From contig JAMOPY010000033.1 in NCBI GenBank assembly GCA_027064305.1, forward strand, positions 1 to 37,592: a stretch of 37,592 nt of DNA. Direction: 5' to 3'. Below the pieces are notes generated by a model. It searched no databases. It saw only the letters and a list, made by a program, of their open reading frames with translations, and was not told where the DNA came from. The stretch is from Methanobacteriota archaeon (GTDB lineage: Archaea; JAADCQ01; Methanopyri; Methanopyrales; Methanopyraceae). This document shows, piece by piece, positions 44 through 33,681 of the stretch (the first letter of the stretch is position 1; each line of letters begins with the position of its first letter). A program made the translations under genes and the position numbers.

Positions 44-68
44 AATTGTTATGGAATTCGTAACAATT
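44..68. repeat. Dyad motif copy 1
   Basis: AATTGTTA-TGGAATTCG-TAACAATT, 6 bp after the tRNA end. Confidence 0.75.
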
Positions 69-224
69 TGCGCCGGGCCCGGTTCCGTCGGGTCACGTCG
101 TCCAGCGGCGCCGCCCGGGCGGTGGGGTGTCAACGTTCGGGCTACTTCCGGTTGTGATGGAAACGGTTACGGCTCCGACGCGTGCCCAGTTCACCCTAAG
201 TCGATCGGGCAGGGGGGAGGTGGG

Positions 225-1091
225 TTGGAGCCGTTCGCCCCGCTGGTCGTGGGCGTGGCGGCCTACAAGGGGGGTACGGGTAAGACCACCGTGGCGTTCA
301 ACGTCGGGATGGAGTTCGCGCGGCCCCGGGGCTACGGTGGCGTTCCGGCGTGCCCGACGGTCTTCATAGACTTTGACCCGCAGGGGCACAGGCGCTCCGG
401 TGGGGTCACCCTGAAGATGTTGTTCGAGGAGGGTCCGTTCAGGTTGAGGCACGTGGGGGTGGTGGAGGGGTTCGAGGTGCATCGCGTCGAGCTGGAGCCC
501 GACGGGTTCGAGGATCTGCTCGACGAGCGGGCCCCGGGCCTGGGTACGGCGTTGTTGGCCGTGCCGGCCCGTCAGAACTACCAGCGTGTCGCCGATCGGA
601 GGCACATTCGGCGATTGGTGGCTTGGGTGCACGACCTGGTGCGCGAGGGGGATGGGGACGCGCGGCCCCCGATCGCCTTCGTGGACACCCCGCCGATGAA
701 CGTCGAGGCGAAGTGGTTGCGTAGGGTGCTTCAGGCCTGCGACACCGTTATCCCCGTGACGGATCCGCGCTCGGTCAGGCAGGTTCGGAGGTTTCTGTCC
801 GACGGGGGTCTGGACGTTCGGGTGGTGGTGCTGAACAAGGTGTGGCCTCGGGGCACCTGTGAGTGGAAGAAGCTCGTGGAGCGGCTTAATCGGGTGCTTC
901 GGGACGTTCATGGGAGCGTCGACGTGGTGGACGTGGAGAACGCTCCGGTCATTCAGAGCGCGACCGACGCCGGGATCCCGCTGCGTATGCGCCGTTCTCG
1001 GCGGCCCGAGTACGAGGGTAGGTTCCGCGACGTTGCGAGGTTGGTGTACCTGGCGTGGCAGGCGCGGGATCACGTGCGGGGGGGTCGCTGA
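225..1091 (+). CDS. ParA/MinD-family ATPase
   Basis: Deviant Walker A KGGTGKTT, IDFDPQG, Walker B-like FVDTPP, VVLNKV. Start placed at TTG 225 after GGAGGT; the ORF is open from 51. Confidence 0.8.
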   Translation: MEPFAPLVVGVAAYKGGTGKTTVAFNVGMEFARPRGYGGVPACPTVFIDFDPQGHRRSGGVTLKMLFEEGPFRLRHVGVVEGFEVHRVELEPDGFEDLLDERAPGLGTALLAVPARQNYQRVADRRHIRRLVAWVHDLVREGDGDARPPIAFVDTPPMNVEAKWLRRVLQACDTVIPVTDPRSVRQVRRFLSDGGLDVRVVVLNKVWPRGTCEWKKLVERLNRVLRDVHGSVDVVDVENAPVIQSATDAGIPLRMRRSRRPEYEGRFRDVARLVYLAWQARDHVRGGR

Positions 1092-1094
1092 CGG

Positions 1095-1811
1095 GTGGAG
1101 TTGAGGTTGGAGGGGTCGCCCCGGGTTTTCGGCGTGGACGAGGAGTGGGCCAGGGCGGTGGTCGGGGCGGCCCGGGATGTGCTGGACGATCGTAGGGCCG
1201 AGGGGAGGACGCTGATCCGGCGGGTGGACGAGGTCTGGCCGGTGGGAAAGGCGGTCGCGCGGGTGGCTTCGGTCTTCCGGCGCTCGGCGCTGGGGTCGGG
1301 GGTGAACTCGCCCTGGGAGGCGCTCCGGGGGGTCCTGGGGTTGGATGAGGTTAAGTCGTCGCTCGTGGGTCGGCTGCGTAAGCTGGTGGAGGGTCGGAGT
1401 ACGTACGGTCTGCCGGCGCTCTCGCCGGAGGCGACGTTGGCGTGCTGGGGCGTCGACGGGGAGGGGCCGGTGGCCGCGCTGAGGGAGGTGTACCGGCGGT
1501 TGGACGTGCACCCGGTTCGGGGGCTCGTCGCGCTGGCGGTGTTGGAGGACGCGGCCGACGTGCTGTTGAGGGGGCTCGGGGAGGCGGCGGAGCGGTTGTC
1601 GGAGGGGTTCCGGCGGGCGTGGGACGAGCGGTCGGCGCGGCTGCTGGGGCTGTGTCTCTGCGCGTGGTTGTCGGAGCGGTTGGATGGGTTCGGTGAGTGG
1701 TGGGAGGGTGAGGACGGCGGCTGGCAGGGGCTTTACTCTCGGGTCAGGCGGGGGGAGTTGATCGAGCGGGTGGTGGAGGAGCGCGTCGGGGTGCGTCCGG
1801 GGAGTGGGTAG
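1095..1811 (+). CDS. Hypothetical protein, probably co-transcribed with the ParA gene
   Basis: 238-aa ORF starting 3 bp after the ParA stop, with normal protein-like composition and no recognised motif. Confidence 0.65.
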   Translation: MELRLEGSPRVFGVDEEWARAVVGAARDVLDDRRAEGRTLIRRVDEVWPVGKAVARVASVFRRSALGSGVNSPWEALRGVLGLDEVKSSLVGRLRKLVEGRSTYGLPALSPEATLACWGVDGEGPVAALREVYRRLDVHPVRGLVALAVLEDAADVLLRGLGEAAERLSEGFRRAWDERSARLLGLCLCAWLSERLDGFGEWWEGEDGGWQGLYSRVRRGELIERVVEERVGVRPGSG

Positions 1812-1870
1812 CGGTCGGTATGGGGCTGGGGCTCTTCATCCGCTCCGTGCCCACCGCTGTCCTCATCCCG
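1812..1870 (-). ncRNA. Box C/D sRNA candidate
   Basis: Minus strand: ATGAGGA (C), cagcggtgggca, CGGA (D'), gcgg, ATGAAGA (C'), gccccagccccata, CCGA (D); short cgg/ccg terminal stem. Confidence 0.7.
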
Positions 1871-1910
1871 GGGGTTGGGGTTTGGGTGGTCGGGTTTGGG
1901 GCTTGCCCGG

Positions 1911-1935
1911 AATCGTTCTGTGTTTCGTAACGATT
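1911..1935. repeat. Dyad motif copy 2
   Basis: AATCGTTC-TGTGTTTCG-TAACGATT, 22 bp past the polyferredoxin stop. Confidence 0.75.
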
Positions 1936-1957
1936 CTGAGGGGGCGTGGGGAGGGGG

Positions 1958-3028
1958 TTACTCCTTCTCCGTCGGGCCCAGGACGCGGTCGAGGGCGCGC
2001 TCCCAGGCCTTGGTGGGCAGGTCCGGCATCACGGTCACGTCCTCGCGCTCGACGGTGATCGCGTCCACCGGGCACGCGCGGGCGCAGGCGCCGCAGTAGG
2101 CGCACGCGTCCGGGTTGACGACGATCCGCGTCTTGCCGGCCGTGCCGCCCTTCTCGAACTCGAGGGCGTTGCACGGGCAGATCTCGACGCAGAGGCCGCA
2201 GCCGACGCACTCCTCGTCGTCGATCTCGATGCGGCCCTGGTAGGGCTTGGTGACCTCGATGGCGTCGACGGGGCAGACCTGCTCGCACCAGGAGCAGTAC
2301 ACGCAGCGGGCCCTGTCGACGTGGATCTCGCCCTTGACCTCGCCCTTCTCGGGCAGCTCGCCGCGGGTGGTCCCGTAGCAGATCTTGCAGCCGACCTTGA
2401 TCGCGTCCTCGGGGCACGTGCGCATGCACACGCCGCAGTACACGCACCGGTCCTCGTCGACCTCGATGGTGAACTCGGGCTCGGGGTCGGCGGCGCTGGG
2501 GGTGGGGCGCTTCACGGTGATCGCGTCGGCGGGGCAGGCCTCCTCGCAGGCCTTGCAGTAGATGCACTTCTCCTCGTCGATGTCGATCTCGCCCATGACG
2601 AGGTCACCGGGCGTGGGGACCTCGCGCTCGACGGTGATCGCGTCCTGCGGGCAGGTGTCCGCGCAGAGCCCGCAGTACACGCACCGCTCCTCGTCGATCG
2701 CGACGTCCTTGGGGAGCTTGGGGAGGCCGTGCTCGGTGGCGGGCTCGCCGTCGATGAGCAGGGTGATCGCGTCGTACGGGCAGACGAGGGCGCAGATGCC
2801 GCAGAGGGCGCACGTCTCCTCGTCCACGTCGATGGGGTCGGCGCCCTTGCGCGCGACGGTGGAGGGCTTCTCGACGGTGATCGCGTCGACGGGGCAGGCC
2901 CGCTCGCAGAGCCCGCAGGCGGCGCACCGGTTCATGTTCACGACGAGTTCCCGCGTCTCCGCGCCCTCGCGCACGATCCGCAGGGTGGGCGGGGAGACCT
3001 CCTTCACGGGCTGGAGCCCGTCCGTCAT
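1958..3028 (-). CDS. fwdF: Polyferredoxin with eight 4Fe-4S motifs, FwdF-like
   Basis: Eight CxxCxxCxxxCP motifs; 356 aa from ATG 3028; size and spacing resemble formylmethanofuran dehydrogenase subunit F. Confidence 0.75.
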   Translation of the reverse strand: MTDGLQPVKEVSPPTLRIVREGAETRELVVNMNRCAACGLCERACPVDAITVEKPSTVARKGADPIDVDEETCALCGICALVCPYDAITLLIDGEPATEHGLPKLPKDVAIDEERCVYCGLCADTCPQDAITVEREVPTPGDLVMGEIDIDEEKCIYCKACEEACPADAITVKRPTPSAADPEPEFTIEVDEDRCVYCGVCMRTCPEDAIKVGCKICYGTTRGELPEKGEVKGEIHVDRARCVYCSWCEQVCPVDAIEVTKPYQGRIEIDDEECVGCGLCVEICPCNALEFEKGGTAGKTRIVVNPDACAYCGACARACPVDAITVEREDVTVMPDLPTKAWERALDRVLGPTEKE

Positions 3029-3080
3029 TTGCGCGACCCCCAACTCCGGTGAGCTGCGCCACCCATCGTGCGCTCCCGTC

Positions 3081-3088
3081 TTATAAAT
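3081..3088 (-). promoter_or_regulatory. TATA box for the polyferredoxin gene
   Basis: ATTTATAA on the minus strand, about 53 bp upstream of the ATG, in a GC-rich background. Confidence 0.6.
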
Positions 3089-3158
3089 CGCGGTGTCGGG
3101 AGCCGGGGTATGGTAAGGTTTATTACGGGGTACTTGCGCGCCGCGCAACCCCGGCCCG

Positions 3159-3170
3159 AAAAAAGGGGGG
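3159..3170 (-). terminator. Oligo-T terminator after fdhB
   Basis: CCCCCC-TTTTTT on the minus strand just after the fdhB stop. Confidence 0.5.
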
Positions 3171-3175
3171 CGGGC

Positions 3176-4303
3176 CTACCCCTCCGCCCGCCCCGCCAAC
3201 CGCTCGAGGAGGTCGGGGAGCCGCTCGCGCAGGACGCCGTAGATCCGGGTCAGGGGGATCTCGGCGGGGCAGGCGGTCTCGCAGGCCCCGCACTCGACGC
3301 AGTACAGGGCGACGCACTGGGCGACGTGCGCGTGCCAGACGGGGGTGGGCGTCACCGACTCCCGGCCGGCGAAGGCCCAGCAGCCCTCCTCGCACGACGC
3401 GCACACGGGGCACACCTGCCGGCAGCTCCGGCACTTGATGCACCGGTCGAGCGCCTCCAGCGCCTCCGCCAGGTGATCCTCGTCCAGCGTCCTCTCCCGC
3501 CAGGAGCGGGCCATCTTCCGCATGATCTCGTCGATCTTCTCCCGGACCCGCACCGACCCCTCGGGCGCCTCCCGCACCTCCACCGCCCCGTCTTTCACGG
3601 CGCCGGCCAGCAGGTCGCGCCCGTCCTCCGTCTTGACCTCCACGAACGTCCACTCTCCCATCATCTCGTCCGGGACGCCCCAGTTGCCGCACGCCAGGTC
3701 CGCGCGCTCCGGGATGTTCTCGTCGCACCGGCGGCAGCTCTCCCGCCTCCCGGACCCCTTCTCCTCCAGATCGTCGATCGAGACCTTGATCTCCTCGCCG
3801 TCTCGAAGCTCGATGATCAGGTGGCCCTTGGCCACCTCCTCCCGCTCCACGTCCAGCGGGTCCACGCCGCGCTCCTCCAGGATCTCCAGCACGACCCTCG
3901 GCTCGAAGGTACCGCCGCAGTTGAGGCCGATCCGGTACACCCGGTCCGGGTTCACGAGGTCGCGCTCGGCCAGCCGGTCCAGCGCTCGGGCGTCGCAGGG
4001 ACGGCAGGTGACGGCGACGCGGAGCGTGGGGTCCTCCCGGTGCAGCTCGGCCACGAGCCGGGCCAGCTGGACGGGGGCGCAGTGGTAGGAGCCGGAGGGT
4101 ACCTCCGACGGGTCGTCTACGACGATGGGTCGCCCGTCCAGCGCGTCGGCGCCTCGCTCCACGCAGACGGCCACGTCCACCAAATCCTCCCGCAGCGCGT
4201 ACCGCAGCAGCTCCGTCACGACCCCGCCGCACGCGGCCTCCTCCACGGTCCCCTCGTCCGTGGACCGGGCGAGGTAGCACCCGCCGACCCGCACCTCGGT
4301 CAC
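3176..4303 (-). CDS. fdhB: F420-dependent formate dehydrogenase beta subunit (FrhB family)
   Basis: ACGGVVT, GSYHC, TCRPCD, IGLNCGG, RRESCRRC, ADLACGNWG and C-terminal 2[4Fe-4S] motifs; directly follows fdhA. Confidence 0.92.
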   Translation of the reverse strand: MTEVRVGGCYLARSTDEGTVEEAACGGVVTELLRYALREDLVDVAVCVERGADALDGRPIVVDDPSEVPSGSYHCAPVQLARLVAELHREDPTLRVAVTCRPCDARALDRLAERDLVNPDRVYRIGLNCGGTFEPRVVLEILEERGVDPLDVEREEVAKGHLIIELRDGEEIKVSIDDLEEKGSGRRESCRRCDENIPERADLACGNWGVPDEMMGEWTFVEVKTEDGRDLLAGAVKDGAVEVREAPEGSVRVREKIDEIMRKMARSWRERTLDEDHLAEALEALDRCIKCRSCRQVCPVCASCEEGCWAFAGRESVTPTPVWHAHVAQCVALYCVECGACETACPAEIPLTRIYGVLRERLPDLLERLAGRAEG

Positions 4304-4310
4304 GGTCCCC

Positions 4311-6362
4311 CTACCCCCTCCGGGTCGACCGGGGCGCGGGGCGGACGCGCGCGGGGACGCGCTTGTACTCCGGGATCCCCGCCTCCGGATCGAGGACGTC
4401 CGGCGGGGTCAGCGCGTTCTCCCCGAAGTGGAACGGCGTGAAGATCACGCCCTCCCGCACCCGATCGGTGACCCGCGCGCGGCACCGCCACTCGCCGTAC
4501 GGAGTCTCGACGATCACCTCCTCGCCGTCCTTCACCCCGTAGCGCTCCGCGTCCCTCGGGTGGATCTCAACGAATGACCCCGGCACCTCGTCGTTCAGGA
4601 GCCGGGAGCGCCCCGTGATCGTCCTCGTGTGGTAGTGCGCGTACACGCGCCCGGTCGTGAGGATCAGCGGGTACTCCTCGTCCACGTCTTGCTCCGGCTC
4701 CCGGTACTCCACGTCCTCGGGCCTCGGGAACCGGGCCCGCCCGTCCTCGGTGGCGAACCTCTCGGTGTGCAGGATGGGCGTTCCCGGGTGGTCCTCGCTC
4801 GGGCACGGCCAGTGGATGCCGCCCGGTCGCCGTCGGAGCCGGTCGTACGTGATCCCCCGGTACTGCGGGATGACGCGCCGGATCTCCTCGAAGACCTCGC
4901 GCGGGGACCGGTGGCCGAAGCCCTTGAGCCCCAGCCGTCGGGCCACCGCCTCGAGGATCCACCAGTCGGGTCGGGCCTCGCCCGGTGGGTCCACGATCCG
5001 CTCCGAGAGCTGGACGCGCCGGTCGGTCGCCGTGAAGGTGCCCGTGCGCTCCGCCCAGCCGGCGGCGGGCAGGACCAGGTCCGCCAGCTCCGCCGTCTCC
5101 GTCAGGTACAGGTCCTGCACGACGAGGAACTCCAGGTTCCGGAGCTTCCTGACCGCGTGGCGCGAGTTCGGCTCCGAGACCGCCGGGTTCTCACCGAAGA
5201 CGTACATCGCCGCGATCTCGTCCGAGTCGAACGCCTCCGGGAGCCGGAGCCCGGGCTCCTCCGGCACCTCGAACCCCCAGAGCCGGGCCATCTCCTCCGC
5301 CGCCTCCGGACCGACCCGCCGGTACCCGGGGAAGTGCGTGGCCAGCGCGCCCGCGTCGCAGGCGCCCTGCACGTTGTTCTGCCCGCGGAGCGGGTTGACG
5401 CCGGTGCCGGGTCGGCCCACGTTACCCGTCAGCAGGGCGAGCGCGCAGAGGGCCCGCAGCGTCCGGCAGGCGATGTCGTGCTGCGTGAGCCCCATGCAGT
5501 AGACGATGCAGCCACGGTCCGCCTCCGCGTACCGCACGGCCGCCTCCCGGACGTCCTCCGGGTCCACCCCGGCGATCCTCCGGACATCCTCCTCCGAGAC
5601 CGCCCCGCGAACGTGCTCCGCGAACGCCTCGAACCCGGTGGTCCGCTCCTCGATGAACCCCTCGTCGTGCAGCCCCTCCTCCAGGATCACCCGGGCCATG
5701 TACAGGAACACGACCAGGTCGGACCGCGGTCGCACCCGCAGGTGCAGGTCCGCCAGCTCCGCCACCAGCGTGCGCCGCGGGTCCAGCACGATCAGGTCGG
5801 CGCCGTCCTCGACCCCCTCCACGATCCTACGGTACACGATCGGGTGCTGCTCCGCCGTGTTCGAGCCCGCGACCAGGTAACAGTCCGCCTCGGCGAGGTC
5901 CGGGATCGAGTTGGTCATCGCCCCCGAACCGAAGACCTCGGACAGCGCGACCACGGTCGGGGCGTGTCACAGCCGCGCGCAGTGGTCCACGTTGTTCGTC
6001 CCGAGCGCGCGGGCCAGCTTCTGCCCGACGTAGTTGTCCTCGTTCGTGGCCTTGGCCGAGGTGACGAAGTACACCTCCTCCGGCCCGTAGGACCCGAGGG
6101 CCTCCGCCACCTCCTCGAGCGCCCGGCTCCACGAGAGCTCACGCAGCTCGCCCGACTCGGTCACCCGCGCCGGCCGCTCCAGCCGGTCCCGCCGGAACGC
6201 CTCCGGAGCCTCCCAGAGCTTGATGCACTGACGGCCCTCGTTGACCGGGTGCCGCCGCCACGGCTCCAGGATCTTAACCTCCTCCCCGTCGGTCCCCACC
6301 AGGATGCCGCAGCCGCACCCGCAGAACGGGCACACCTGCGGCACGAACCGCAGCCGGGCCAC
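4311..6362 (-). CDS. fdhA: Formate dehydrogenase alpha subunit, selenocysteine-containing (in-frame UGA at 5967-5969, codon 132)
   Basis: ORFs 5967..6779 and 4311..5954 are in the same frame and join as [28 protein letters not shown]. N-terminal CPFCGCGC, PLRGQNNVQGACD, molybdopterin-binding C-terminus; GTG start after GGGGGGAG. Confidence 0.93.
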
Positions 6363-6460
6363 CGGGTGCTCCCCCCTAACCCGAGCGACGGGGGCGCCCC
6401 CGGACCCGGGTTTCGGCCGCGGTTCCCCCGGGCCCGAGCCCCCGCGTGCGGGGGCCCTTC

Positions 6461-6498
6461 GGACCGACGGTCCCCTGCTTCGGGGTTCCCGACGGCCC
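6461..6498 (-). promoter_or_regulatory. Archaeal SECIS element in the fdhA 5' leader
   Basis: gggccgucgg-GAA-CCCC-gaagca-GGGG-A-ccgucggucc: lower stem, GAA/A internal loop and short G-C upper stem, matching the archaeal SECIS consensus. Confidence 0.85.
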
Positions 6499-6758
6499 AC
6501 ACCGGGGGCGGCCCGGGTTCCCCGCGGCTTACTCCCCGGGCCCGGAGGGGCGTCCCCGGTGACCGACGGTGCCGCGCCGGCTAAGCCACTCCCGGACCCC
6601 TGGGAAACGAAAGCGTGAACGTGGTTTCGACTCCCTCGTTCGTCGACACCCAGTTGTCGGTTCCGCACTGATGCCATCCGGTGATGTGAAGGTCGTCGGG
6701 TTCCCCAGGGTGGAGGGGACTCCCGTTGCCCCGTGACGAGGGTGAGAAATCGGAGGAG

Positions 6759-7769
6759 ATGATCCTGTACGGCGTTCACACGACCTTCGAGGAGGTGGCC
6801 AAGGCGGCGGTTCCCAAGTTCAGGACGACCCCGGGCCGGCTGCTGTACGCCGGGTTCATGGCGGGAGCGTTCATCGCCTTCGGTTTCACGCTCGCTACCA
6901 TCGCGGCCTGCGTGGCGAAGTTCCCGCCCTACGCGGTCGGAGGCACGTTCAACCAGCCCCTGTTCAAGCTGCTACTCGGCGCCGTCTTCCCCATGGGCCT
7001 GATCGCGGTGGTCATTGCCGGGGCCGACCTGTGGACGGGGAACGTGCAGTCCCTCGGCTCGGCCAAGGGGATGGGGTACGCCGACTGGCGCCACGTGATT
7101 TACAACTGGTTCGGCAGCTACGGGGGCAACTTCATCGGGTCCATCTTCCTGGCGCTCATGGCGGTCCCGCTGACCGGGCTCTTTGGCACCACCGGGCACC
7201 CGAACCCCTTCGGCCAGGCCGCCGTATCGATCGCGCAGAAGAAGGCCTCGCTGGACGCGATCTCGCTGTTCTTCCGCGGGGTCGGGTGCAACTGGCTGGT
7301 GAACTTGGCGGTGTGGCAGGCGGCGCGCGTTAAGGACGGGGCCGGTAAGATCCTGGCGATCTGGTTCCCGATCTTCGCGTTCGTCGCGATCGGCTACGAG
7401 CACGCCATCGCCAACATGTGGGTCATCCCGACGGCCGTCTTCGCCAGCGCTCACAAGGTCACCTGGTCCCAGCTCTTTTACAACCTGATGCCGGTGACCC
7501 TGGGCAACGCCGTCGGCGGGTTCCTCTTCGTGCCGTTCTACTACTGGTACCTCGGGCACCCGGAGCTCAGTACCAAGCGCGTCTACCGCGAGCTGCTCGA
7601 CTTCGTCGCGGTGACCCTGCTGTTCTTCGCGCTGGCCGTGCTCGTCCCGGCCGGGATCGCGTACGGGCTCGAGGCCGCCCTGAGGAAGGCCGCCACGTAC
7701 GTCGTGCCGACGGTGGTCTCGGCCTACTACGCGGCCGGGACCTTCGCGCTCCGGAGGATCGCCCGGTAG
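6759..7769 (+). CDS. fdhC: Formate/nitrite transporter (FNT family)
   Basis: GFMAGAFIAFG, GADLWTGN, GNFIG, CNWLVNLAVW, GYEHAIANM, VTLGNAVGG; ATG after GGAGGAG. Confidence 0.9.
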   Translation: MILYGVHTTFEEVAKAAVPKFRTTPGRLLYAGFMAGAFIAFGFTLATIAACVAKFPPYAVGGTFNQPLFKLLLGAVFPMGLIAVVIAGADLWTGNVQSLGSAKGMGYADWRHVIYNWFGSYGGNFIGSIFLALMAVPLTGLFGTTGHPNPFGQAAVSIAQKKASLDAISLFFRGVGCNWLVNLAVWQAARVKDGAGKILAIWFPIFAFVAIGYEHAIANMWVIPTAVFASAHKVTWSQLFYNLMPVTLGNAVGGFLFVPFYYWYLGHPELSTKRVYRELLDFVAVTLLFFALAVLVPAGIAYGLEAALRKAATYVVPTVVSAYYAAGTFALRRIAR

Positions 7770-7791
7770 CGCCCGGGGCGCCTTTCTTTTC
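7770..7791 (+). terminator. Short GC hairpin plus oligo-T terminator after fdhC
   Basis: cgcccggggcgc followed by CTTTCTTTTC. Confidence 0.45.
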
Positions 7792-7795
7792 GGGC

Positions 7796-7820
7796 AATCG
7801 TTTCGAGAGTGGTAACGATT
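7796..7820. repeat. Dyad motif copy 3
   Basis: AATCGTTT-CGAGAGTGG-TAACGATT (extended by GGC/GCC), right after the fdhC terminator. Confidence 0.75.
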
Positions 7821-8017
7821 GCCGGCTCGGCCTCGGTCCGGTCGCGCCCTGCTTCCGGATTGTGAAACCGGGTCGTTTTCCCGCGTTGGGTGGGGTTTCC
7901 TTTCGGTGGGTCCCGGGCGCGGTCCGCTTCGGGGTGGGTTCGTTCGGGGCGGGCCCGTTCGGAGCTCCCAATCAACATATTTTTCCGGGTCGTTCGGGCG
8001 GGGCGGGGGGTGCGCGC

Positions 8018-9586
8018 ATGGCGAAGATTCTGGTGACGGATCCGATCCACGAGGACGCGCTGAGGAGGCTGGAGGAGCTGGGTGAGGTGGTGGTGCTGGA
8101 GGACGCGGACGAGGAGGAGCTCCGGAGGCACGTGCGGGACGCGGACGCGTGGGTGGTGCGGAGCGGGACGCGGGTGACGCGGGAGCTGATCGAGGAGGCG
8201 GAGAACCTGAAGGTGATCGCGCGGGCGGGGGTGGGCGTGGACAACATCGACGTGGAGGCGGCGACGGAGCGCGGGATCATCGTGGTGAACGCGCCGGAGT
8301 CGAGCTCGATCTCGGTGGCGGAGCACACGATGGGGTTGATGCTGGCGCTGGCGCGGAGGATCCCGCAGGCGGATCGGTCGGTGCGTCGGGGTGAGTGGGA
8401 GCGGCAGCGGTTCATGGGGGTGGAGTTGGCGGGGAAGGTGCTGGGGATCATCGGGCTGGGTCGGATCGGGCGGCAGGTGGCGAAGCGGGCGAGGGCGTTC
8501 GAGATGGAGGTGATCGCGTTCGATCCGTACATCTCGGAGGAGGTGGCGGAGGAGCTGGGCGTGGAGCTGGTGGAGGATCTGGACGAGCTGCTGCGGCGGG
8601 CGGACGTGGTCACGATTCACGTGCCGTTGACGGAGGAGACGCGGGGGATGATCGGGGAGCGGGAGCTGAAGCTGATGAAGGAGTCGGCGTTCCTGATCAA
8701 CTGCGCGCGGGGTGAGGTGGTGGACGAGGAGGCGCTGGTCAGGGCGCTGAAGGAGGGGTGGATCGCGGGCGCGGCGCTGGACGTGTTCGCGGAGGAGCCG
8801 CCGGGGGAGGATCACCCGCTGTACGAGCTGGACAACGTGGTGCTCACGCCGCACATCGGGGGGTCGACGAGCGAGGCGCAGCGGGCGGCGGGGCTGATCG
8901 TGGCGCGGGAGATCGAGCGGGTGTTGAAGGGGGAGATCCCGGAGAACGTGGTGAACCTGCCGGTGGCGGGGGTGTCGGAGGCGACGCGGCGGTTGATGGA
9001 GGTGGGGGAGCGGTTGGCGGACGTGGGCGCGCAGCTGTTGGAGGGTAGGCTGCGGTCGGTCGTGGTGAAGGTGGGGGACGAGCCGGGCGAGCGGGAGCGG
9101 GAGGCGCTGAAGCGGTCGGTGTTGAAGGGGTGCCTGGATCGGATCCTGCAGGAGCCGGTGACGATGGTGAACGCGGTGCGGGTGGCGGAGGATCGGGGGA
9201 TCGAGGTCGAGTTCGCGGTCTCGGACGAGCTGGAGTCGGGGGAGCTGGCCGTCTCGCTGCGGTCGGAGGGGGAGGAGGTGTCGCTGCGGGGCGCGTGGTT
9301 GGACGGGCAGGTCTACCTGACGTCGGTGAACGGGTACGAGCTGCGGTTCAAGCTGAGCGGGCCGACGCTGTTCGTCTGGCACGTGGACCGTCCCGGGGTG
9401 GTCGGTGAGGTGGGGCTGATCCTGGGCGAGCACGGGGTGAACATCGCGGCGATGGAGGTGGGCCGTCGGGAGCGGGGTGGGGAGGCGATCATGGTGATCC
9501 GGACGGACGAGGAGCCGCCGGAGGAGTGCCTGCGGGCGATCGGGGAGGTGGAGCAGGTGCGGCGGGTGAGGCTGGTGCTGTGCTGA
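8018..9586 (+). CDS. serA: D-3-phosphoglycerate dehydrogenase
   Basis: [38 protein letters not shown] and a C-terminal ACT domain (DRPGVVG...NIAAM); start at ATG 8018. Confidence 0.95.
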
Positions 9587-10014
9587 GGAGCGTGGCGGTG
9601 GCGGGCGACCTGGACGACTTCGGGGAGGTGGTGCGGGAGAAGGGGTGGCCGGAGTACTCTCCCAACCCCGCCACGGGCCTCCTCACGGAGCTGGTGGAGC
9701 GGTTCCTGACCCGGTTCCCGGGCGCGGTGGCCGTCAAGGGGCCGGACCGGGAGCGGGGCACCGAAGAGTTCATCGTCGAGATCCCGGGAGGGGAGGGGCT
9801 CCTGGAGGAGATCGTGGAGGAGTGCGAGCGCATCCGGCGCGAGTTCGAGCGGCGGTTCGAGGGCGAGGTGACGATCAGCATCGGGGTGGGGGTGGCCCCG
9901 GCCCCGCGCCACCGGCTGGTTCCGGAGCGTGAGTCCCCCGCGGTCCGGCGGGCGTTGGAGGCGCTGCGGGAGGCGAAGCGGCGGGGTGGGAACGTCGTGG
10001 TCGTGCGGGGGTGA
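9580..10014 (+). CDS. Stand-alone GGDEF-like (nucleotide cyclase fold) domain protein
   Basis: GDLDDF, GTEEF, VTISIGV and ALREAKRRGGN reproduce the order of GGDEF-domain motifs; GTG 9580 overlaps the serA stop and follows GGTGAGG. Confidence 0.65.
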   Translation: MLRSVAVAGDLDDFGEVVREKGWPEYSPNPATGLLTELVERFLTRFPGAVAVKGPDRERGTEEFIVEIPGGEGLLEEIVEECERIRREFERRFEGEVTISIGVGVAPAPRHRLVPERESPAVRRALEALREAKRRGGNVVVVRG

Positions 10015-10020
10015 GGCGGC

Positions 10021-11391
10021 GTGTCGGGGCGGGCCGGGTCGGGCGGGTTCATGATCACGTGCTACGCGCTGGCGGCGCGGTCGCTGGTGGCGGTGATGCA
10101 GACGCGGTCGTACCCGATTCAGTACGTCCTGCGGCGGGAGCTCTCGGACTACGACGATCGGACCCAGTCCGTGACCCGGAGCCTCGTGTACGAGACGCTG
10201 CGCCGGTACGGCACGCTGGAGCGGGTGGTGGAGGACGTCGCGCGGAGCCGGCTGCCCCCGCTGGAGCGGGCCCTGGTGATGATCGCGGCGAACGCGATCC
10301 TGTACGAGGGGGAGCACCCGGCCCCGGTCACGGACTGCGCTGCCCGGGCGGCGAAGCGGCTGGGCGTGAACCACCGGCGAGTGCACGGGGTGGTCGCGGA
10401 CCTGGAGGACTACGAGGGGCCGGAGCCGGAGGACGAGGTGGACCGGCTCTGCCTGGAGTACCATCACCCGCGCTGGTTCGTGGAGCGGTTCGAGCCGCTG
10501 CTGGGTCGGGACGAGCTGAAGCGGCTGATGGAGGCGCACAACCGGCCCCCGGACTACTACACGTTCCGCGTGAACACGGCGGCGGCGGACGTGGACGAGG
10601 TCATCGGGGAGTTCGAGGAGCACGGGTTCGAGGTCGAGCGCGGCCGGTACGTGGAGTACTGCGTGCGGGTGCGGAAGGGGCGGCCGCTCCGGCTCGAGGA
10701 GCTCGAGTGCTGGAGGAAGGGATGGATCGTCCCGCAGGACGAGGCGGCCGCGCTCGTCACCGAGGTGCTGGACCCGCAGCCGGGGGAGCGGATCGCGGAC
10801 CTGTGCGCGGCCCCGGGCGGGAAGACCACGCACATCGCTCAGCTGACGGAGGGCGACGTGGAGATCCTCGCCGTGGACGTGAGCCGCACCCGGCTCCGCC
10901 GGCTGCGGCGGTTCGCCGAGCGGATGGGGTTCGAGGACTGCATCGAGATCCTGCGGGCGGACGTGCGCCGCCTCGGACGGAACCCGCGCTTCGTCGGTAA
11001 GTTCGACCGCGTGCTGCTCGACCCTCCGTGCACGAGCCTCGGCACCCTGCGCACCGACCCGGACGTGAAGTGGAAGATCGGGCCGAGGGAGGTGCGGGAG
11101 CTCGCCGCGAAGCAGCGGCAGCTGATCCGGGCGGCCGCGCGACTGGTCAAGCCCGGGGGCGTGCTCGTGTACTCCACCTGCACGCTCACGCCCGAGGAGA
11201 ACGAGCTCGTCGCCTCCGAGGCGCTCAAGACCGAGCGGCTGCGGGCGGAGGACGTGCGCTCCGAGTTCGACTTCCTCAGCCCGCCCCTCGAGGTGAACGG
11301 CGTCTCCCCGTCCCTAGAGGCCGGCCGCATGTGGCCGCACGTGCACGACACGTCCGGGTTCTTCGTGGCCCGGTTCCGCAAGCTGCGTTAG
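10021..11391 (+). CDS. RsmB/NOL1/NOP2/Sun family RNA m5C methyltransferase with NusB-like N-terminus
   Basis: QDEAA, DLCAAPGGKTTH, LLDPPCT, VYSTCTL, GFFVARF; start could be ATG 10051. Confidence 0.92.
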   Translation: MSGRAGSGGFMITCYALAARSLVAVMQTRSYPIQYVLRRELSDYDDRTQSVTRSLVYETLRRYGTLERVVEDVARSRLPPLERALVMIAANAILYEGEHPAPVTDCAARAAKRLGVNHRRVHGVVADLEDYEGPEPEDEVDRLCLEYHHPRWFVERFEPLLGRDELKRLMEAHNRPPDYYTFRVNTAAADVDEVIGEFEEHGFEVERGRYVEYCVRVRKGRPLRLEELECWRKGWIVPQDEAAALVTEVLDPQPGERIADLCAAPGGKTTHIAQLTEGDVEILAVDVSRTRLRRLRRFAERMGFEDCIEILRADVRRLGRNPRFVGKFDRVLLDPPCTSLGTLRTDPDVKWKIGPREVRELAAKQRQLIRAAARLVKPGGVLVYSTCTLTPEENELVASEALKTERLRAEDVRSEFDFLSPPLEVNGVSPSLEAGRMWPHVHDTSGFFVARFRKLR

Positions 11392-12665
11392 GCGAGTAGC
11401 AGGCCCGCGAGCAGCCCCACCGCCCCCGCCGCGGCCGGCGGGACGAGGTACGGCCACACCCGCCGCACGAGCCCCGGCCCGCCGAACGCGCCGACCCAGA
11501 GCAGCTTCACGAGCCCCGTCTCCAGGGAGGCGAGCGCGATCAGCCGCCCGGCCACGCCCGGGTCGAGCTTCCCCGAGGCCGCCATGTACGCGAGCGTCAG
11601 GCTCATCGCGTGGCTGCTCGCCAGCGATCCCACCACGACGCCCACCACCACCCCGGACCGGCCCGCGAGGAGCTGGGCCACCTTCAGCGCCATGGTGAAC
11701 CCCGAGATCAGCACCGCCAGCTTCACCGCCGGCTTCAGGGACAGGGGCGAGCGGATCCGCCGCCGGAGGATCCCCCACAACCGCTCCTCGTCCACGTCCA
11801 GCCGACCCGCCCCGAGCGCGGCGACCAGGAGGCCGACGAGCGCGGCCGGGACGGCGACGAGCGCGACCCACCGGAGCACCTCCGGGCTCCGGGAGACCAC
11901 GCCCACGTACGCCATGTTGCGGAGCTCGGCCACGGCCGTCGCGGCCGGCACGACCACCGCCACGACCCGGGGCACCTCCCGGAACCGGGACGCCACCGTC
12001 GCCGTCGTGGCCGAGCTGCTCACGAACCCGCCCACCAGGCCCGTGGCCAGGGCCCCGCCCCGCGCCGAGATCCGCATGCCCACGTACCCGATCGCCGTTA
12101 CCGCCAGTACGATCAGCACGATCTCGATCACGCTCCGCAGGTTGAGCACGCCCCACGGGTCCACCGGTCCCGGCGGGCAGAGCGGGTAGACCAGCGCGGC
12201 CAGTGAGAAGACCGTGATCGCGTCCAGCACGTCCCGGTCCGAGAGCCGCCGCAGGATCGGGTGGACCCGGGCCCGGGAGAGCAGCACGACGGCGGTGAGG
12301 ATGGCGAGCGTGGCCCCCTCCTTGAACCGACCCAGCCCCACGAGCCCGCCGGACGCCAGGGTGACCATCAGGGCCAGCGGGGTCACGACCCCGAGCGAGC
12401 GCCGCCGGTACACGCGCATGGCGTAAAGGAGGGTGACCAGGCCGACCGTGCCCGCGAGCACGGCGACCGCCAGCGGCCCCATCCCGACCCGCGCCAGGTA
12501 CGTGGAGAGGCCGCCGAGCAGCCCCGTCAGCGTGAAAGTGCGGAACCCGGCCACCCGGCGGGCCGGCCGCGCGTGCTCCCGCTCCACCCCGATGAGCATG
12601 CCCACCGCGGCGGAGAGGATCACGGTCCGGAGGAAGTCCAGGTAGCCCGAGAGCTCCCAGCCCAC
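11388..12665 (-). CDS. MgtC/SapB-family (DUF4010-type) membrane protein
   Basis: GMLIGVERE, AGFRTF, GGFVSSSATT; many hydrophobic segments. Confidence 0.8.
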   Translation of the reverse strand: MGWELSGYLDFLRTVILSAAVGMLIGVEREHARPARRVAGFRTFTLTGLLGGLSTYLARVGMGPLAVAVLAGTVGLVTLLYAMRVYRRRSLGVVTPLALMVTLASGGLVGLGRFKEGATLAILTAVVLLSRARVHPILRRLSDRDVLDAITVFSLAALVYPLCPPGPVDPWGVLNLRSVIEIVLIVLAVTAIGYVGMRISARGGALATGLVGGFVSSSATTATVASRFREVPRVVAVVVPAATAVAELRNMAYVGVVSRSPEVLRWVALVAVPAALVGLLVAALGAGRLDVDEERLWGILRRRIRSPLSLKPAVKLAVLISGFTMALKVAQLLAGRSGVVVGVVVGSLASSHAMSLTLAYMAASGKLDPGVAGRLIALASLETGLVKLLWVGAFGGPGLVRRVWPYLVPPAAAGAVGLLAGLLLA

Positions 12666-12693
12666 GGGCCCTCGCCCCGGGGGTGAGTTCCGC

Positions 12694-13865: not shown

Positions 13866-13876
13866 AGGCCACCCCA

Positions 13877-13884
13877 TTTATAGT
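13877..13884 (+). promoter_or_regulatory. TATA-like box upstream of the orphan-rgyA run
   Basis: TTTATA element about 30 bp before GTG 13914. Confidence 0.5.
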
Positions 13885-13913
13885 CGGGGACCGGCACGTC
13901 GCCCGGGACCCCC

Positions 13914-15444: not shown

Positions 15445-15450
15445 CGGGAG

Positions 15451-17196: not shown

Positions 17197-17212
17197 CGGG
17201 GGAGGCCCGGTT

Positions 17213-18169: not shown

Positions 18170-18173
18170 ATCG

Positions 18174-20884: not shown

Positions 20885-21319
20885 GTGTCCGAGATCCGGC
20901 TGGGCCTCGTCGTCACCGAGTTCAACCGGGAGATCACGTACGCGATGGAGGAGCTGGCGGTCCAGCACGCGAAGGACCTCGGGGCCCGGGTCGTGGAGCG
21001 CGTGCTCGTGCCCGGCTCGTTCGAGGTCCCCCTCGCCGTCAAGCGGCTGCTGGAGCGGGACGACATCGACGCCGTGGTCACGCTGGGCGCGATCATCAAG
21101 GGGGACACGGACCACGATCAGGCCATCGCGCAGCAGGCCTTCCGGAAGCTCCAGGACCTGATGGTCGAGTACGGGAAGCCCGTCGCCCTCGGGATCTCCG
21201 GCCCGGGGATGACGCGCATGGAGGCGCTGGAGCGCGTGCACTACGCCAAGCGGGCCGTCGAGGCGGCGGTGAAGATGGTCCGCCGCCTGCGCGAGCTGGA
21301 GGGGTCGGGGGAGGCGTAA
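20885..21319 (+). CDS. ribH: 6,7-dimethyl-8-ribityllumazine synthase
   Basis: EFNREIT, VPGSFEVPL, LGAIIKGDTDHD, PVALGISGPG. Confidence 0.95.
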   Translation: MSEIRLGLVVTEFNREITYAMEELAVQHAKDLGARVVERVLVPGSFEVPLAVKRLLERDDIDAVVTLGAIIKGDTDHDQAIAQQAFRKLQDLMVEYGKPVALGISGPGMTRMEALERVHYAKRAVEAAVKMVRRLRELEGSGEA

Positions 21320-21360
21320 TCGTTAAGTACGTACGGGCGGCTAGGCACCGCCGGCGGACC

Positions 21361-21438
21361 GCCGCGGCAGCTCAGCCTGGTTAGAGCGCGGGACTTGTAA
21401 TCCCGTGGCCCCGGGTTCAAATCCCGGCCGCGGCTCCA
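21361..21438 (+). tRNA. tRNA-Thr(UGU), gene-encoded C8, CCA encoded
   Basis: GCCGCGG-CA-GCTC..GAGC-G-CGGGA-CT-TGT-AA-TCCCG-TGGCC-CCGGG-TTCAAAT-CCCGG-CCGCGGC-T-CCA; TATA-like TTAAGTA at 21323-21329. Confidence 0.96.
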
Positions 21439-21443: not shown

Positions 21444-21468
21444 AATCGTTACGAGAATCTTAACGAAA
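21444..21468. repeat. Dyad motif copy 4
   Basis: AATCGTTA-CGAGAATCT-TAACGAAA, 5 bp after the tRNA CCA. Confidence 0.75.
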
Positions 21469-21481
21469 GCGGGGGACGCCC

Positions 21482-22774
21482 TTGGGGTACGAGGACCGGT
21501 TCCCGGCCTCCAAGGAGGTCTTCGAGCGCGCCGAGCGCGTCATGCCCGGCGGCGTGAGCAGCCCGGTCCGCCGCTTCGACCCCTACCCCTTCTGCGTCGA
21601 GCGCGCGGAGGGCTCCCGCCTGTACACGATCGACGGCCAGGTCCTCATCGACTACTGCCTCGCCTTCGGCCCCCTGATCCTCGGGCACGCGCACCCGGAG
21701 GTCGTCGAGGCGGTCCGGGAGCGGGTGGCCGACGGCTTCCACTACGGCACCCTCACCGAGCCCGAGGTCGCCCTCGCCGAGAAGGTCGTGGACCTCGTCC
21801 CCAACGTGGAGAAGGTCCGCCTCGTGAACACGGGCACCGAGGCCACGATGAGCGCGATCCGCCTCGCCCGCGCGTACACCGGCCGCGACCGGATCATCAA
21901 GTTCGAGGGCTGCTACCACGGCGCGCACGACGCCGTCCTGGTGAAGGCCGGCTCCGGCGCCTCCGAGCTCGGCGCCCCCGACTCCCCCGGCGTGCCCGAG
22001 CCCGTGGCCGAGTGCACGCTCGTCTGCCCCTTCAACGACGTGGAGGCGTTCGTCGAGACCGTCGAACGCTTCGACGAGGAGGTCGGCGCCGTCATCGTCG
22101 AGCCCGTGCTCGGCAACGCCGGCTGCGTGCCCCCCGATCCCGAGTTCCTCAAGACCCTCCGCGAGTACTGCGACGGGACCGAGCGCCTCCTCATCTTCGA
22201 CGAGGTCATCACCGGCTTCCGGCTGGGCCTCGGCGGGGCGCAGGAGTACTACGGCGTGGACGCCGACCTCGTCTGCCTGGGCAAGATCCTCGGCGGCGGA
22301 CTCCCCATCGGCGCGCTCGCCGGGCCCGAGGAGTACATGACCCACGTCGCGCCCGAGGGCAAGGTGTACCAGGCGGGCACCTTCAACGGGAACCCCGTCT
22401 CCGCCACGGCCGGCCTCGCGACCCTCGAGGTGCTCGAGCGGGAGAAACCGTACGACGAGCTCGCGGACAAGGCCGAGCGACTCGCCTCCGCGCTCGCCGA
22501 CGGGCTCGAGGACCGGGGCCTGGAGGGCACGGTCAACCGCGTCGAGTCCATGTTCCAGGTGTACTTCGGCGTGGAGCGCGTGCGGGACTACGGGGACGTC
22601 AACGCCGCGGACCACGACGCCTTCAAGGCCTTCCACCGGGGACTCCTCGAGGAGGGCGTCTGGATCGCCGCCTCCAACTACGAGGCGTGGTTCCTCTCCA
22701 CCGCGCACACCGAGGAGGACCTCGAACGCACCGAGGAGGCGATCGAGTCCGCCCTCGACCGGCTCACGGGATGA
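21482..22774 (+). CDS. hemL: Glutamate-1-semialdehyde 2,1-aminomutase
   Basis: PGGVSSPVR, NTGTEATMSAIRLARAYTGR, FEGCYHG, FDEVITGFR, GKILGGGLP, YQAGTFNGNP. Confidence 0.96.
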   Translation: MGYEDRFPASKEVFERAERVMPGGVSSPVRRFDPYPFCVERAEGSRLYTIDGQVLIDYCLAFGPLILGHAHPEVVEAVRERVADGFHYGTLTEPEVALAEKVVDLVPNVEKVRLVNTGTEATMSAIRLARAYTGRDRIIKFEGCYHGAHDAVLVKAGSGASELGAPDSPGVPEPVAECTLVCPFNDVEAFVETVERFDEEVGAVIVEPVLGNAGCVPPDPEFLKTLREYCDGTERLLIFDEVITGFRLGLGGAQEYYGVDADLVCLGKILGGGLPIGALAGPEEYMTHVAPEGKVYQAGTFNGNPVSATAGLATLEVLEREKPYDELADKAERLASALADGLEDRGLEGTVNRVESMFQVYFGVERVRDYGDVNAADHDAFKAFHRGLLEEGVWIAASNYEAWFLSTAHTEEDLERTEEAIESALDRLTG

Positions 22775-30582: not shown

Positions 30583-30633
30583 GCCGGAGCCCCGACCGCG
30601 CGCCGTAAATTAGTCTTTCCAGGGGGACCCGCC

Positions 30634-32350: not shown

Positions 32351-32717
32351 CCCTCATCCCCCTTACCCGAGGTGAACCGTCCGACCGGTCCGCACCGTAC
32401 CGATGGGTTTGATTGCGTTTACTACCCGACCAGACCGGATGGCTCGGGCTCGACGCCGCGGGCGACCAACGTAGCGACCGTCTCCGTATCCCCGGATCAT
32501 CGTGGGAGTGCTTGAGCGGGCTCGTTTCCCTCGTCCGACCGCCCTCCGCGATCGCCCCTCGCGCCGCCCCCTCACCACGGAAGTTGGCCCGTTCGGCCCG
32601 TCGGTGGAGGTCGTGTCCGTCCGCGTTGGGCGATCTGGGCGTCTGATAGCCATTGAACTCGCTGGGGACAAGGTTTCAGGGTCTGCCCGCGTGGTCACGC
32701 CAGGGGTCGTCGGGACG

Positions 32718-32948
32718 GTGGAGTACGACCACGAGCTCGACGTTCGCGGTAAGGTCTGTCCCATGCCCGTCCTCGAGACGCGGAAGAAGCTCGAGGAGAT
32801 GGACGAGGGCGAGGTGCTGAAGGTGGTCGGCGACTACCCGCCCGCGAAGGACAACATCCGCCGCTTCGCGGAGGAGAACGGGCACGAGGTGCTGGAGGTG
32901 GAGGAGAAGGACGACCGCTTCGTCATCTACATCCGGAAGGGCGGCTAG
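32718..32948 (+). CDS. TusA/SirA-family sulfur carrier
   Basis: LDVRGKVCPMPVL (CPxP motif); 76 aa. Confidence 0.9.
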   Translation: MEYDHELDVRGKVCPMPVLETRKKLEEMDEGEVLKVVGDYPPAKDNIRRFAEENGHEVLEVEEKDDRFVIYIRKGG

Positions 32949-33000
32949 CCCACGACAAATTTATCGGGCGCTCGCGATCGACCCGGCGCGGGGGCGCGTT

Positions 33001-33348
33001 TTGTCCGAGGAGCAGGAGCGAGAGGAGGAGAGGGAAGAGGAGGAGCGGGACGAAGAGGAGGTGGGTGTGCGCCGCGCCACGGCCGAGGAGATGAAGGAGA
33101 TCGGCGGTAAGACCCGCGAGGAGCTGATCGAGGAGGCCGCGGAGAAGGTCGAGATGACGGAGGCGGGCCGGATCGAGCGCAGCGATTACGCGGTGTGCTC
33201 CGCCTGCGGCGGTCCCATCGCCCCGGGCGAGCGGGCCGTGTCGCACCCGTGTCCGAAGTGCGGTGAGGTCGTGATCACCCGGTGCCAGAAGTGCCGGCGG
33301 CTGGGCAACCGGTATCAGTGCCCGAACTGCGGGTTCATCGGACCGTAA
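33001..33348 (+). CDS. Zn-ribbon protein (HVO_2753/DUF1610-like) with acidic N-terminal extension
   Basis: [27 protein letters not shown]; usual position upstream of EF-1beta. Confidence 0.85.
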
Positions 33349-33361
33349 GGGGGTCCGGCCC

Positions 33362-33640
33362 GTGTCCAAGGTGCTGGTCGACCTGAAGGTGCTGCCGGAG
33401 AGCCCGGAGGTGGACTACGAGGAGCTCGCGGAGGAGGTCCGGGAGCGGTTGGAGAACCTGGACATCGTCGAGTCGGTGGAGGGGATCGAGGAGGAGCCCA
33501 TCGCCTTCGGCCTGAAGGCGCTCCGGGTCAAGGTGGTGGTGCCGGACGCGGAGGGAGGGACCGACCGGCTCGAGGAGGAGCTCCGGGACTTGGAGCACGT
33601 GAACCAGGTGGAGGTGGTGTCCGCGAGCCGCACCCTTTAG
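33362..33640 (+). CDS. ef1b: Translation elongation factor 1-beta
   Basis: [27 protein letters not shown]. Confidence 0.95.
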
Positions 33641-33656
33641 GCCTCCCTCCCGGGTG

Positions 33657-33681
33657 GATCGTTATTGATGTCGAAACGATA
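33657..33681. repeat. Dyad motif copy 5
   Basis: GATCGTTA-TTGATGTCG-AAACGATA, 16 bp after the ef1b stop, overlapping the next start codon. Confidence 0.7.

Follow-up and report, generated by a model that had tools for sequence, protein, structure and literature searches.

We analyzed a 37,592-nucleotide (nt) stretch of DNA from a Methanobacteriota archaeon of the family Methanopyraceae (GenBank assembly GCA_027064305.1, contig JAMOPY010000033.1; hereafter, the window), in which an AT-rich 23-bp dyad recurs behind the 3' ends of genes. Genome-wide counts, comparisons within the genus, and the spacing of the dyad to tRNA, rRNA, and protein-gene ends indicate that this element probably punctuates transcription units.

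The core unit is the 23-bp dyad ATCGTTACGA-N3-TCGTAACGAT (consensus AATCGTTACGAnnnTCnTAACGAT, with 9 nt separating CGTTA from TAACG), in which GTT at positions 4 to 6 and AAC at positions 18 to 20 are near invariant. The original prediction, made from the letters of the window, had placed five copies in it and had considered such a dyad unlikely by chance, and both statements were borne out. The five cores lie at 45-67, 1912-1934, 7797-7819, 21445-21467, and 33658-33680, and the motif ATYGTTWCGA has five matches in the window compared with 0.03 expected, a count reached in 0 of 100 shuffles. We extended the search to the window's own genome (G000; 50 contigs, 1,208,994 bases, 70% GC, 89% complete, in which the window is contig C33) and to G002, a complete genome from within the genus (1,694,969 bases, 61% GC). 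The pattern ATYGTT-N11-AACRAT occurs 34 times in G000. Scanning arm spacings of 0 to 30 in this genome yielded, besides N11, only one match at a spacing of 5, and the reversed arm order had no match; the element is therefore a strict 23-bp dyad. A symmetric position weight matrix (PWM) detected 78 sites of at least 10 bits in G000, 68 of which scored at least 20 bits, far above five genomes simulated with a Markov model (1, 0, 0, 0, and 0 sites of at least 10 bits). In G002, 104 sites scored at least 15 bits, and the maximum scores in three simulated genomes were 20.6, 12.7, and 9.1 bits. The 23-mer is an AT-rich sequence within GC-rich DNA. Isolated half-sites occurred only at about the chance rate (263 copies of ATCGTT in G000, compared with our estimate of ~150 by chance plus those in the dyads).

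The PWM sites were then assigned to gene contexts, excluding those below 20 bits in G000 or 15 bits in G002. Coding sequences (CDSs) in G000 were called with our own crude codon-usage caller (1283 CDSs, 92% coding), and window genes were checked with Pfam; RNA genes were added from aragorn tRNA calls, Rfam matches, and T-loop matches. Sites were present in 27 of 60 convergent gaps in G000 (45%) and 39 of 129 in G002, in 39 of 279 (14%) and 53 of 515 tandem gaps, and in 0 of 154 and 7 of 222 divergent gaps, respectively. One G000 site (overlapping the stretch behind tRNA-Sec) and five G002 sites fell inside a called open reading frame (ORF), and one G000 site lay at a contig edge. Four G000 sites had at first seemed divergent; all four proved to lie behind unannotated RNA genes (two intron-bearing tRNAs and a 16S rRNA gene with two dyads). 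The 3'-end bias noted in the window is accordingly a genome-wide property in both species and not a chance arrangement. At one G002 site (1111227), no gene was called on the upstream side.

Coupling was complete among the stable-RNA genes examined. Of the noncoding RNA (ncRNA) genes in G000 with 80 nt of downstream DNA, 26 of 26 were followed by a dyad. Behind tRNA genes it begins 5 to 13 nt past the 3' end, and 5 to 9 nt past an encoded CCA, in both genomes; among the tRNA-associated dyads in G000, one extends past the end of its contig and another is truncated within the first arm. The signal recognition particle (SRP) RNA gene of G000 has its dyad at +12, and the 16S rRNA gene has one at +78 and a second 159 nt on (C40:12804 and C40:12963). 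In G002, the corresponding positions are +8 for 5S, +82 for 16S, and +146 for 23S rRNA, and a dyad follows all 34 tRNA genes (28 of 28 accepted aragorn calls and 6 detected by their T-loop). Three aragorn calls (C31:35064 and C46:59186 in G000; 1508277 in G002) were dropped as false, having no CCA or T-loop and a coding-like sequence. Thirty-four is also the tRNA gene number given for Methanopyrus kandleri (PMC3695527). Neighboring genes for tRNA-Ala and tRNA-Ile are separated by a dyad, with a canonical transcription factor B recognition element (BRE)/TATA promoter 7 nt later. In a separate arrangement in G002, one dyad belongs to tRNA-Lys and a second to the ArgRS gene convergent with it (720740 and 720801).

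About two-thirds of the sites lie behind protein genes. Where a protein gene was followed by a gap of at least 25 nt, 48 of 379 ends in G000 and 65 of 740 in G002 carried a dyad. Stop-to-dyad distances peak at 12 to 30 nt and break off sharply below 12 nt, the distance at which exactly seven G000 sites stand. A single dyad serves two convergent genes at 18 sites in G000 and 23 sites in G002. Strong expression is expected of many genes with a dyad, including those for S10, S15, L7Ae, EF-2, the thermosome, McrB, and histone.

Conservation of the dyad was examined within and beyond the genus. Strict matches were present in all six genomes of the genus (29 in G000 and 8, 14, 31, 43, and 34 in the others), in none of which the reversed control pattern matched. 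Of 25 other archaeal genomes, 24 had no strict match and one had a single match. A T-loop followed by a half-site (GTTCRAATCC, then ATYGTTW at 14 to 32 nt) was found in the six genomes in 24 of 29, 29 of 44, 28 of 42, 26 of 39, 33 of 36, and 27 of 34 cases, the denominators including chance T-loop matches. Across 1154 reciprocal-best ortholog pairs between G000 and G002 (median identity, 76.6%), the dyad was behind both genes in 30 pairs, the G000 gene only in 17, the G002 gene only in 19, and neither in 1088 (odds ratio, 101; P = 2e-34). Orthologous sites differ in the variable arm positions and in the loop, so the dyad is maintained and not merely inherited. One pair is identical at 23 of 23 bases in both species (G000 C4:8455 and G002:981464; ATCGTTACGGGGGTCGTAACGTG); its GGGGG loop and terminal GTG resemble a ribosome-binding site and a start codon for the gene that follows. 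A mobile element was considered and rejected, given the unrelated flanks, the retention of sites behind orthologs, and the lack of a Y1 transposase match in three of three genomes.

Variation among sites bears on whether the dyad is read as DNA or as RNA. Over the 10-bp "stem" of 104 aligned sites, 76.8% of pairs were standard, which is also the mean (76.8%) of shuffles that redistributed the letters of the 3' arm (257 of 500 were as high), and the covariation score was 0.171 compared with 0.169 in shuffles. At the variable pair 8/16 (Y versus R), the four combinations occurred 23, 20, 20, and 22 times in G002 (odds ratio, 1.26; 0.83 in G000). With sites oriented by the upstream gene, there was no sense-strand excess of G.U, which was no commoner than A.C. 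Between 25 and 50% of the cells at inner positions 7 to 10 were unpaired, and the outer stem pairs by sequence conservation only. An extended hairpin formed through the C-rich and G-rich flanks was also rejected, matched flanks pairing no better than permuted ones. The arms vary independently, without covariation, which argues that two half-sites are read separately by a symmetric protein on duplex DNA. To judge by these comparisons, the data point to a double-stranded DNA site for such a protein rather than to a hairpin, although an RNA stem held by a protein might also be compatible with them.

The sequence leading into the dyad is C-rich, G-poor, and polar. In the 12 nt before it, taken in the sense of the upstream gene at sites with no downstream gene near, the base fractions were C.45 and G.31 in G000 and C.43 and G.18 in G002, compared with C.36 and G.33 (G000) and C.33 and G.29 (G002) in 3' untranslated regions that lack a dyad. 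The G-richness past the dyad was largely gone in G002 when no gene was close; it stems mainly from Shine-Dalgarno runs or from the C-rich tract of a convergent partner. In G000, none of the 48 dyad-bearing CDS ends or 26 ncRNA ends had a run of five T's within 60 nt, and only 25 of 331 dyad-less ends had one; the G002 counts were 4 of 65 dyad-bearing CDS ends and 0 of 29 ncRNA ends. The idea that dyads and T-rich tracts exclude one another was dropped (odds ratio of 0.27 in G000, P =.34; positive association of 3.9 in G002). Bacterial-type terminators consisting of a hairpin and a T run were not enriched in window positions 1 to 20000 (6, compared with 4.8 in shuffles), and the dyad itself, with its AT-rich arms and no T run after it, lacks the features of a bacterial intrinsic terminator. 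The general factor aCPSF1/FttA was encoded in all three genomes tested (~860 to 900 bits), and its cleavage has been located at CA or CC (PMC8501993). TFS gave no score above the cutoff in the same number of genomes (three of three), with four of four archaeal control genomes positive; M. kandleri has been described as alone in being without TFS (PMC7289017).

RNA ends were available from four size-fractionated A-tailed runs (2013) carrying G002 sequence, as contigs only, from which neither strand nor level can be read. Among the ends listed, A-tails on 5S rRNA marked the mature end in three of four runs and dyad positions 7 to 8, after ..GUUA(U), in one of four. A loose 16S rRNA end at position 16753 of the G002 segment 500001-520000 (L033) lay 23 nt beyond the mature end and not at a dyad. 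RNA contigs had back-joints of 68 to 71 nt at three places (L033 9814-9881, 16593-16663, and 19285-19355), as expected of circular C/D-box small RNAs; one back-jointed RNA ends 8 nt from the dyad behind the 16S rRNA gene.

We place at about even chances the reading, drawn from sequence comparison, that the C-rich tract and the dyad together form a genus-specific end-of-unit element, read as duplex by a dimer that slows the polymerase and followed by FttA cleavage. In the scheme that we infer, which covers protein binding, pausing, FttA involvement, and termination itself, the element consists of a polar, C-rich, G-poor tract of ~12 to 30 nt and then the 23-bp palindrome. A symmetric dimeric protein would read the duplex and stop or delay RNA polymerase coming from both directions; aCPSF1/FttA could then cut the exposed, C-rich nascent transcript and release the complex. 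The element would stand in for the oligo-T terminators of other archaea, being obligatory behind stable-RNA genes, used by a subset of mRNAs, and leaky. Pausing a few bases into the dyad, as hinted at by the 5S rRNA ends, would put the CCA end of a tRNA at the exit channel, ~15 nt behind, and the geometry suggests that the 12-nt floor past stop codons would ensure that the stop codon had been transcribed and had emerged. A more specific version strikes us as doubtful: a genus-specific dimer would bind the dyad, the TFS-less polymerase would stall once it had entered the site by a few bases, and FttA would cut the C-rich RNA at the exit channel (for tRNAs, the encoded CCA end). If it is true, termination and tRNA 3'-end formation would be a single event, and the element would be the first sequence-specific, protein-dependent, bidirectional terminator in Archaea.

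Several observations weigh against such a termination element. No dyad-binding protein is known, and the half-site centers are ~14 to 16 bp apart, not the usual one helical turn. With the dyad only 5 to 9 nt past CCA, a bound protein that arrested the polymerase at its edge would leave the transcript ending within the tRNA. The 3'-extended 5S rRNA ends are inside the proximal arm and not upstream of the dyad, and one RNA contig spans the dyad beside tRNA-Arg (L033:12218-12240); from the contigs, and from the stretches that they leave uncovered, we conclude no more than that there is some RNA from read-through or from the antisense strand. The proximal arm is somewhat better preserved than its distal counterpart at ncRNA sites (10 versus 4, P =.05; 13 versus 6, P =.04), which a purely symmetric site does not predict; CDS sites showed no such bias. 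Only ~10 to 13% of the gapped CDS ends have a dyad, so most genes must end otherwise. The gap and context counts rest on crude, self-made gene calls. Additionally, some tandem sites (12 of 40 in G000 and 12 of 51 in G002) have the next start codon no more than 26 nt past the dyad, with only a G-rich, Shine-Dalgarno-like run between them; a dyad stands between mcrB and mcrD in both genomes (G000 C25:6162 and G002:612404), 12 to 13 nt before the mcrD start. Since these short gaps leave no room for a promoter, the polymerase must read through, and the sites within operons make the element leaky or conditional. The idea that sites in operons are weaker was only hinted at in G002 (median of 23.1 versus 29.2 bits, P =.035), was not borne out in G000, and was abandoned.

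The original prediction had proposed that an abundant dimeric DNA-binding protein acts at the dyad as a transcription roadblock or boundary. Its dimeric reader agrees with the absence of arm covariation, which favors a duplex site for a dimer, but no candidate protein is indicated: the product of the neighboring ORF at 1095-1811 matched no Pfam family at 1e-5, and nothing marks it or TrmB, the two proteins then named, as the binder. Because ~70 copies of the dyad exist, adjacency of either gene to one copy is no evidence. The boundary function is likewise in keeping with the 3'-end placement, but a pure roadblock fits poorly with a dyad 5 to 9 nt behind tRNA ends and with roughly a quarter to a third of the tandem sites lying in operons.

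It is unlikely, although best placed among the alternatives, that the dyad works at the RNA level, a weak stem-loop or protein-bound RNA directing 3'-end cleavage or blocking 3' exonucleases. Such a signal would mature the ends of tRNAs, rRNAs, and SRP RNA and would segment operon mRNAs, and it includes the speculation, published in 2017, that the motif is a target of tRNA 3' maturation (PMC5217627). The tight spacing past CCA, the presence of sites in operons, where termination would do harm, the 5S rRNA ends within the proximal arm, and the better preservation of that arm at ncRNA sites all speak for it. Little covariation is also found in sequence-specific stem-loops such as that at the 3' end of histone mRNAs. 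However, pairing in the dyad is no better than column composition yields, C.A mismatches on the sense strand are as frequent as G.U, and inner positions are often unpaired. An AT-rich stem in genomes of 61 to 70% GC would also be frail; when folded with standard parameters, the hairpins were predicted to be unfolded at 84 to 97% of sites at 85°C and at all sites at 98°C. Furthermore, a reader of single strands needs no palindrome, and nothing else near the tRNA genes could terminate transcription, as the T-run count behind ncRNA genes illustrates.

An intrinsic signal acting without a dedicated protein is, in our view, quite unlikely. Here the C-rich tract and the AT-rich palindrome would form a weak RNA-DNA hybrid that destabilizes the divergent, TFS-less polymerase at ~100°C, FttA may help, and the palindrome would let the signal work from both sides. 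The AT-richness of the 23-mer in GC-rich DNA, the 5S rRNA ends after ..GUUA(U), the polarity of the C-rich tract, the sites shared by convergent genes, and the combination of no TFS with an encoded FttA are in its favor. Against it, the invariant GTT/AAC and the strict N11 spacing specify far more than AT-richness would, both arms are retained at tandem sites though only one direction is needed, and isolated half-sites occur only at about the chance rate.

The other proposal of the original prediction, a dispersed chromosome-organization site, left the complete coupling to stable-RNA 3' ends unexplained, and a site of this type is improbable. As a REP-like topology site, the dyad would load or block a nucleoid protein or topoisomerase where busy transcription units end and would take no direct part in termination. 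The distribution does resemble that of repetitive extragenic palindromic (REP) elements and bacterial interspersed mosaic elements (BIMEs), being extragenic and in convergent and co-oriented gaps but not promoter gaps; many of the genes that it follows are expected to be strongly expressed, and read-through copies in operons would pose no problem. Opposed to these points are the fixed spacing to stable-RNA ends as well as the coupling itself, the lack of any other terminator at the dyad-bearing stable-RNA genes, the polar upstream C-rich tract, and the absence of covariation, of clustering, and of a Y1/RAYT transposase in three of three genomes.

A promoter or operator function (a bidirectional BRE/TATA-like element or a repressor site for the downstream gene) was rejected as highly improbable: the half-site AATCGTT does occur in the BRE/TATA region of two tRNA promoters, with AACGTT in three more, and short-gap dyads are centered ~24 to 27 nt before the next start codon, but the tRNA promoters have classical GAAA..TTTAWA elements ~30 to 45 nt upstream, divergent gaps hold no site in G000 (7 of 222 in G002), Shine-Dalgarno runs past short-gap dyads indicate that the mRNAs are not leaderless, and the 27 sites in convergent gaps of G000 have nothing to drive.

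The five window copies illustrate these contexts, and the positions originally given for them after two tRNAs and the fwdF, fdhC, and ef1b stops hold, with distances here counted to the 23-bp core. Copy 1 (ATTGTTATGGAATTCGTAACAAT; 45-67) is a few nucleotides behind a tRNA gene truncated by the window start, of which the 3' portion with the T arm and the acceptor end remains (1-40, plus strand); with the T-loop GTTCAAATCC at 17-26, it gave a T-loop and half-site match at C33:17-51. Copy 2 (1912-1934) occupies a convergent gap, 100 nt past the stop of the plus-strand ORF at 1095-1811 and 23 nt past that of an FwdF-like polyferredoxin gene (1958-3043, minus strand; eight Fer4 domains by Pfam), the last gene of an fdhA-fdhB-polyferredoxin unit, whose C-rich, G-poor 3' untranslated tract (1935-1957, minus strand) leads into the dyad. 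Copy 3 (7797-7819) is 27 nt past the stop of the gene for the formate/nitrite transporter FdhC (6726-7769, plus strand; Pfam); the pyrimidine-rich 3' tract between them (7770-7796, plus strand) has a short GC stem and then CTTTCTTTTC, and the next called gene begins 198 nt on. Copy 5 (33658-33680) is 17 nt past the stop of the elongation factor 1-beta (EF-1beta) gene (33362-33640, plus strand; Pfam), separated from it by the C-rich tract gcctccctcccgggtgg (33641-33657, plus strand), and overlaps the called start of an HD-domain ORF (33665-34180). This EF-1beta site is among the conserved ones, with the G002 ortholog having its dyad 14 nt past the stop.

Copy 4 (21445-21467; degenerate distal arm, TCTTAACGAA) begins 6 nt past the encoded CCA of tRNA-Thr(UGU) (21361-21438, plus strand). 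This tRNA has C at position 8, a trait of M. kandleri that is corrected by C-to-U editing (PMC3695527). Its BRE/TATA-like promoter AATCGTTAAGTACGTA (21317-21333, plus strand), identified by comparison with other tRNA upstream regions, shares AATCGTT with the dyad half-site yet contains no dyad. The TTG start of a gene for a HemL-like class III aminotransferase (21482-22774, plus strand; Pfam) follows 14 nt after the dyad, too close for a promoter of its own, and the gene is probably expressed by read-through from the tRNA-Thr promoter. The intervening stretch (21468-21481) contains GGGGGA, a likely ribosome-binding site of the HemL-like gene.

Other features of the window stand apart from the dyad. 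The formate dehydrogenase alpha subunit gene (4311-6362, minus strand) has one in-frame TGA at 5967-5969, in the context ..CARL-TGA-HAPTV.., that most likely encodes selenocysteine; tRNA-Sec is present in G000 (C42:1622-1713), with a dyad behind it. A 358-residue ORF at 13865-15444 matches the type IA topoisomerase domain only at domain positions 88 to 408, and no gene was called in the 500 nt ahead of it. This ORF may represent one half of a split reverse gyrase, such as that of M. kandleri, or have a miscalled start. Two neighboring ORFs at 225-1811 (288 and 238 residues) matched nothing in Pfam at 1e-5 and are orphans typical of the genus.

Archaeal termination is understood almost exclusively through oligo-U tracts and FttA. 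A palindrome that replaces oligo-T behind every stable-RNA gene would be a natural experiment on halting an RNA polymerase II-like enzyme, and the ~100 defined sites per genome make experimental tests straightforward. The dyad may also shed light on how stalled polymerase is dealt with in the one archaeal lineage described as being without TFS. It is already of use in annotation, having flagged intron-bearing tRNAs, a 16S rRNA gene, and an SRP RNA gene missed by gene finders.

In the literature searched, a single paper describes this motif. In 2017, CGTTA(N)9TAACG was reported from M. kandleri AV19, ~10 bp past roughly half of its tRNA genes, and from no other genome; the accessible text makes no mention of protein-gene ends (PMC5217627). 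The core, the 9-nt gap, and the position behind tRNAs are the same as in the dyad studied here, but the published motif concerned half of the tRNAs of one species, whereas we found it behind all tRNAs, 5S, 16S, and 23S rRNA, SRP RNA, and protein genes, and in all six genomes of the genus. The assignment to Methanopyrus in the original prediction is consistent with this shared motif, with the 34 tRNA genes of G002, and with C at position 8 of the window's tRNA-Thr. New here are its presence behind all stable RNAs and ~50 to 70 mRNA ends per genome, the bias toward convergent gaps, the conservation across the genus and behind orthologs, the lack of pairing covariation, the polar C-rich tract, and the copies within operons. 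A paper on topoisomerase V was discarded as prior art, since CGTTA/TAACG appears in it only in crystallization oligonucleotides.

Among known systems, REPs are hairpins with compensatory changes that are often clustered and tied to RAYT transposases. Like REPs and BIMEs, the dyad is a short extragenic palindrome past genes and absent from promoter gaps; unlike them, it shows no covariation, occurs as single copies at a fixed spacing to tRNAs, and is kept behind orthologs. The RAYT (Y1) transposase family PF01797 had no match in G000 (89% complete), G002, or a third genome (G004). Oligo-T terminators acting with aCPSF1/FttA occupy the same place as the dyad, and FttA is encoded here as well, but they have a U-rich upstream tract, in contrast to the C-rich tract and missing T run of the dyad (PMC8716108, PMC8501993). 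Rut sites likewise present C-rich, G-poor nascent RNA ahead of the release point, but they extend over 70 to 80 nt and need Rho, a factor missing from archaea, whereas the tract described here is 12 to 30 nt long and coupled to a palindrome (PMC8501993). In the literature searched, no protein-bound DNA terminator has been described in Archaea. Such terminators include the site of mTERF1 at mitochondrial tRNA-Leu and those of Reb1/Nsi1 and TTF-I (Sal box) behind rRNA genes. Like the dyad, with its putative bound protein, these sites are specific DNA sequences directly behind highly transcribed stable-RNA genes. They lack symmetry, are polar, and act for one gene class apiece, whereas the dyad is a strict palindrome that stands behind all gene classes and is approached from both sides.

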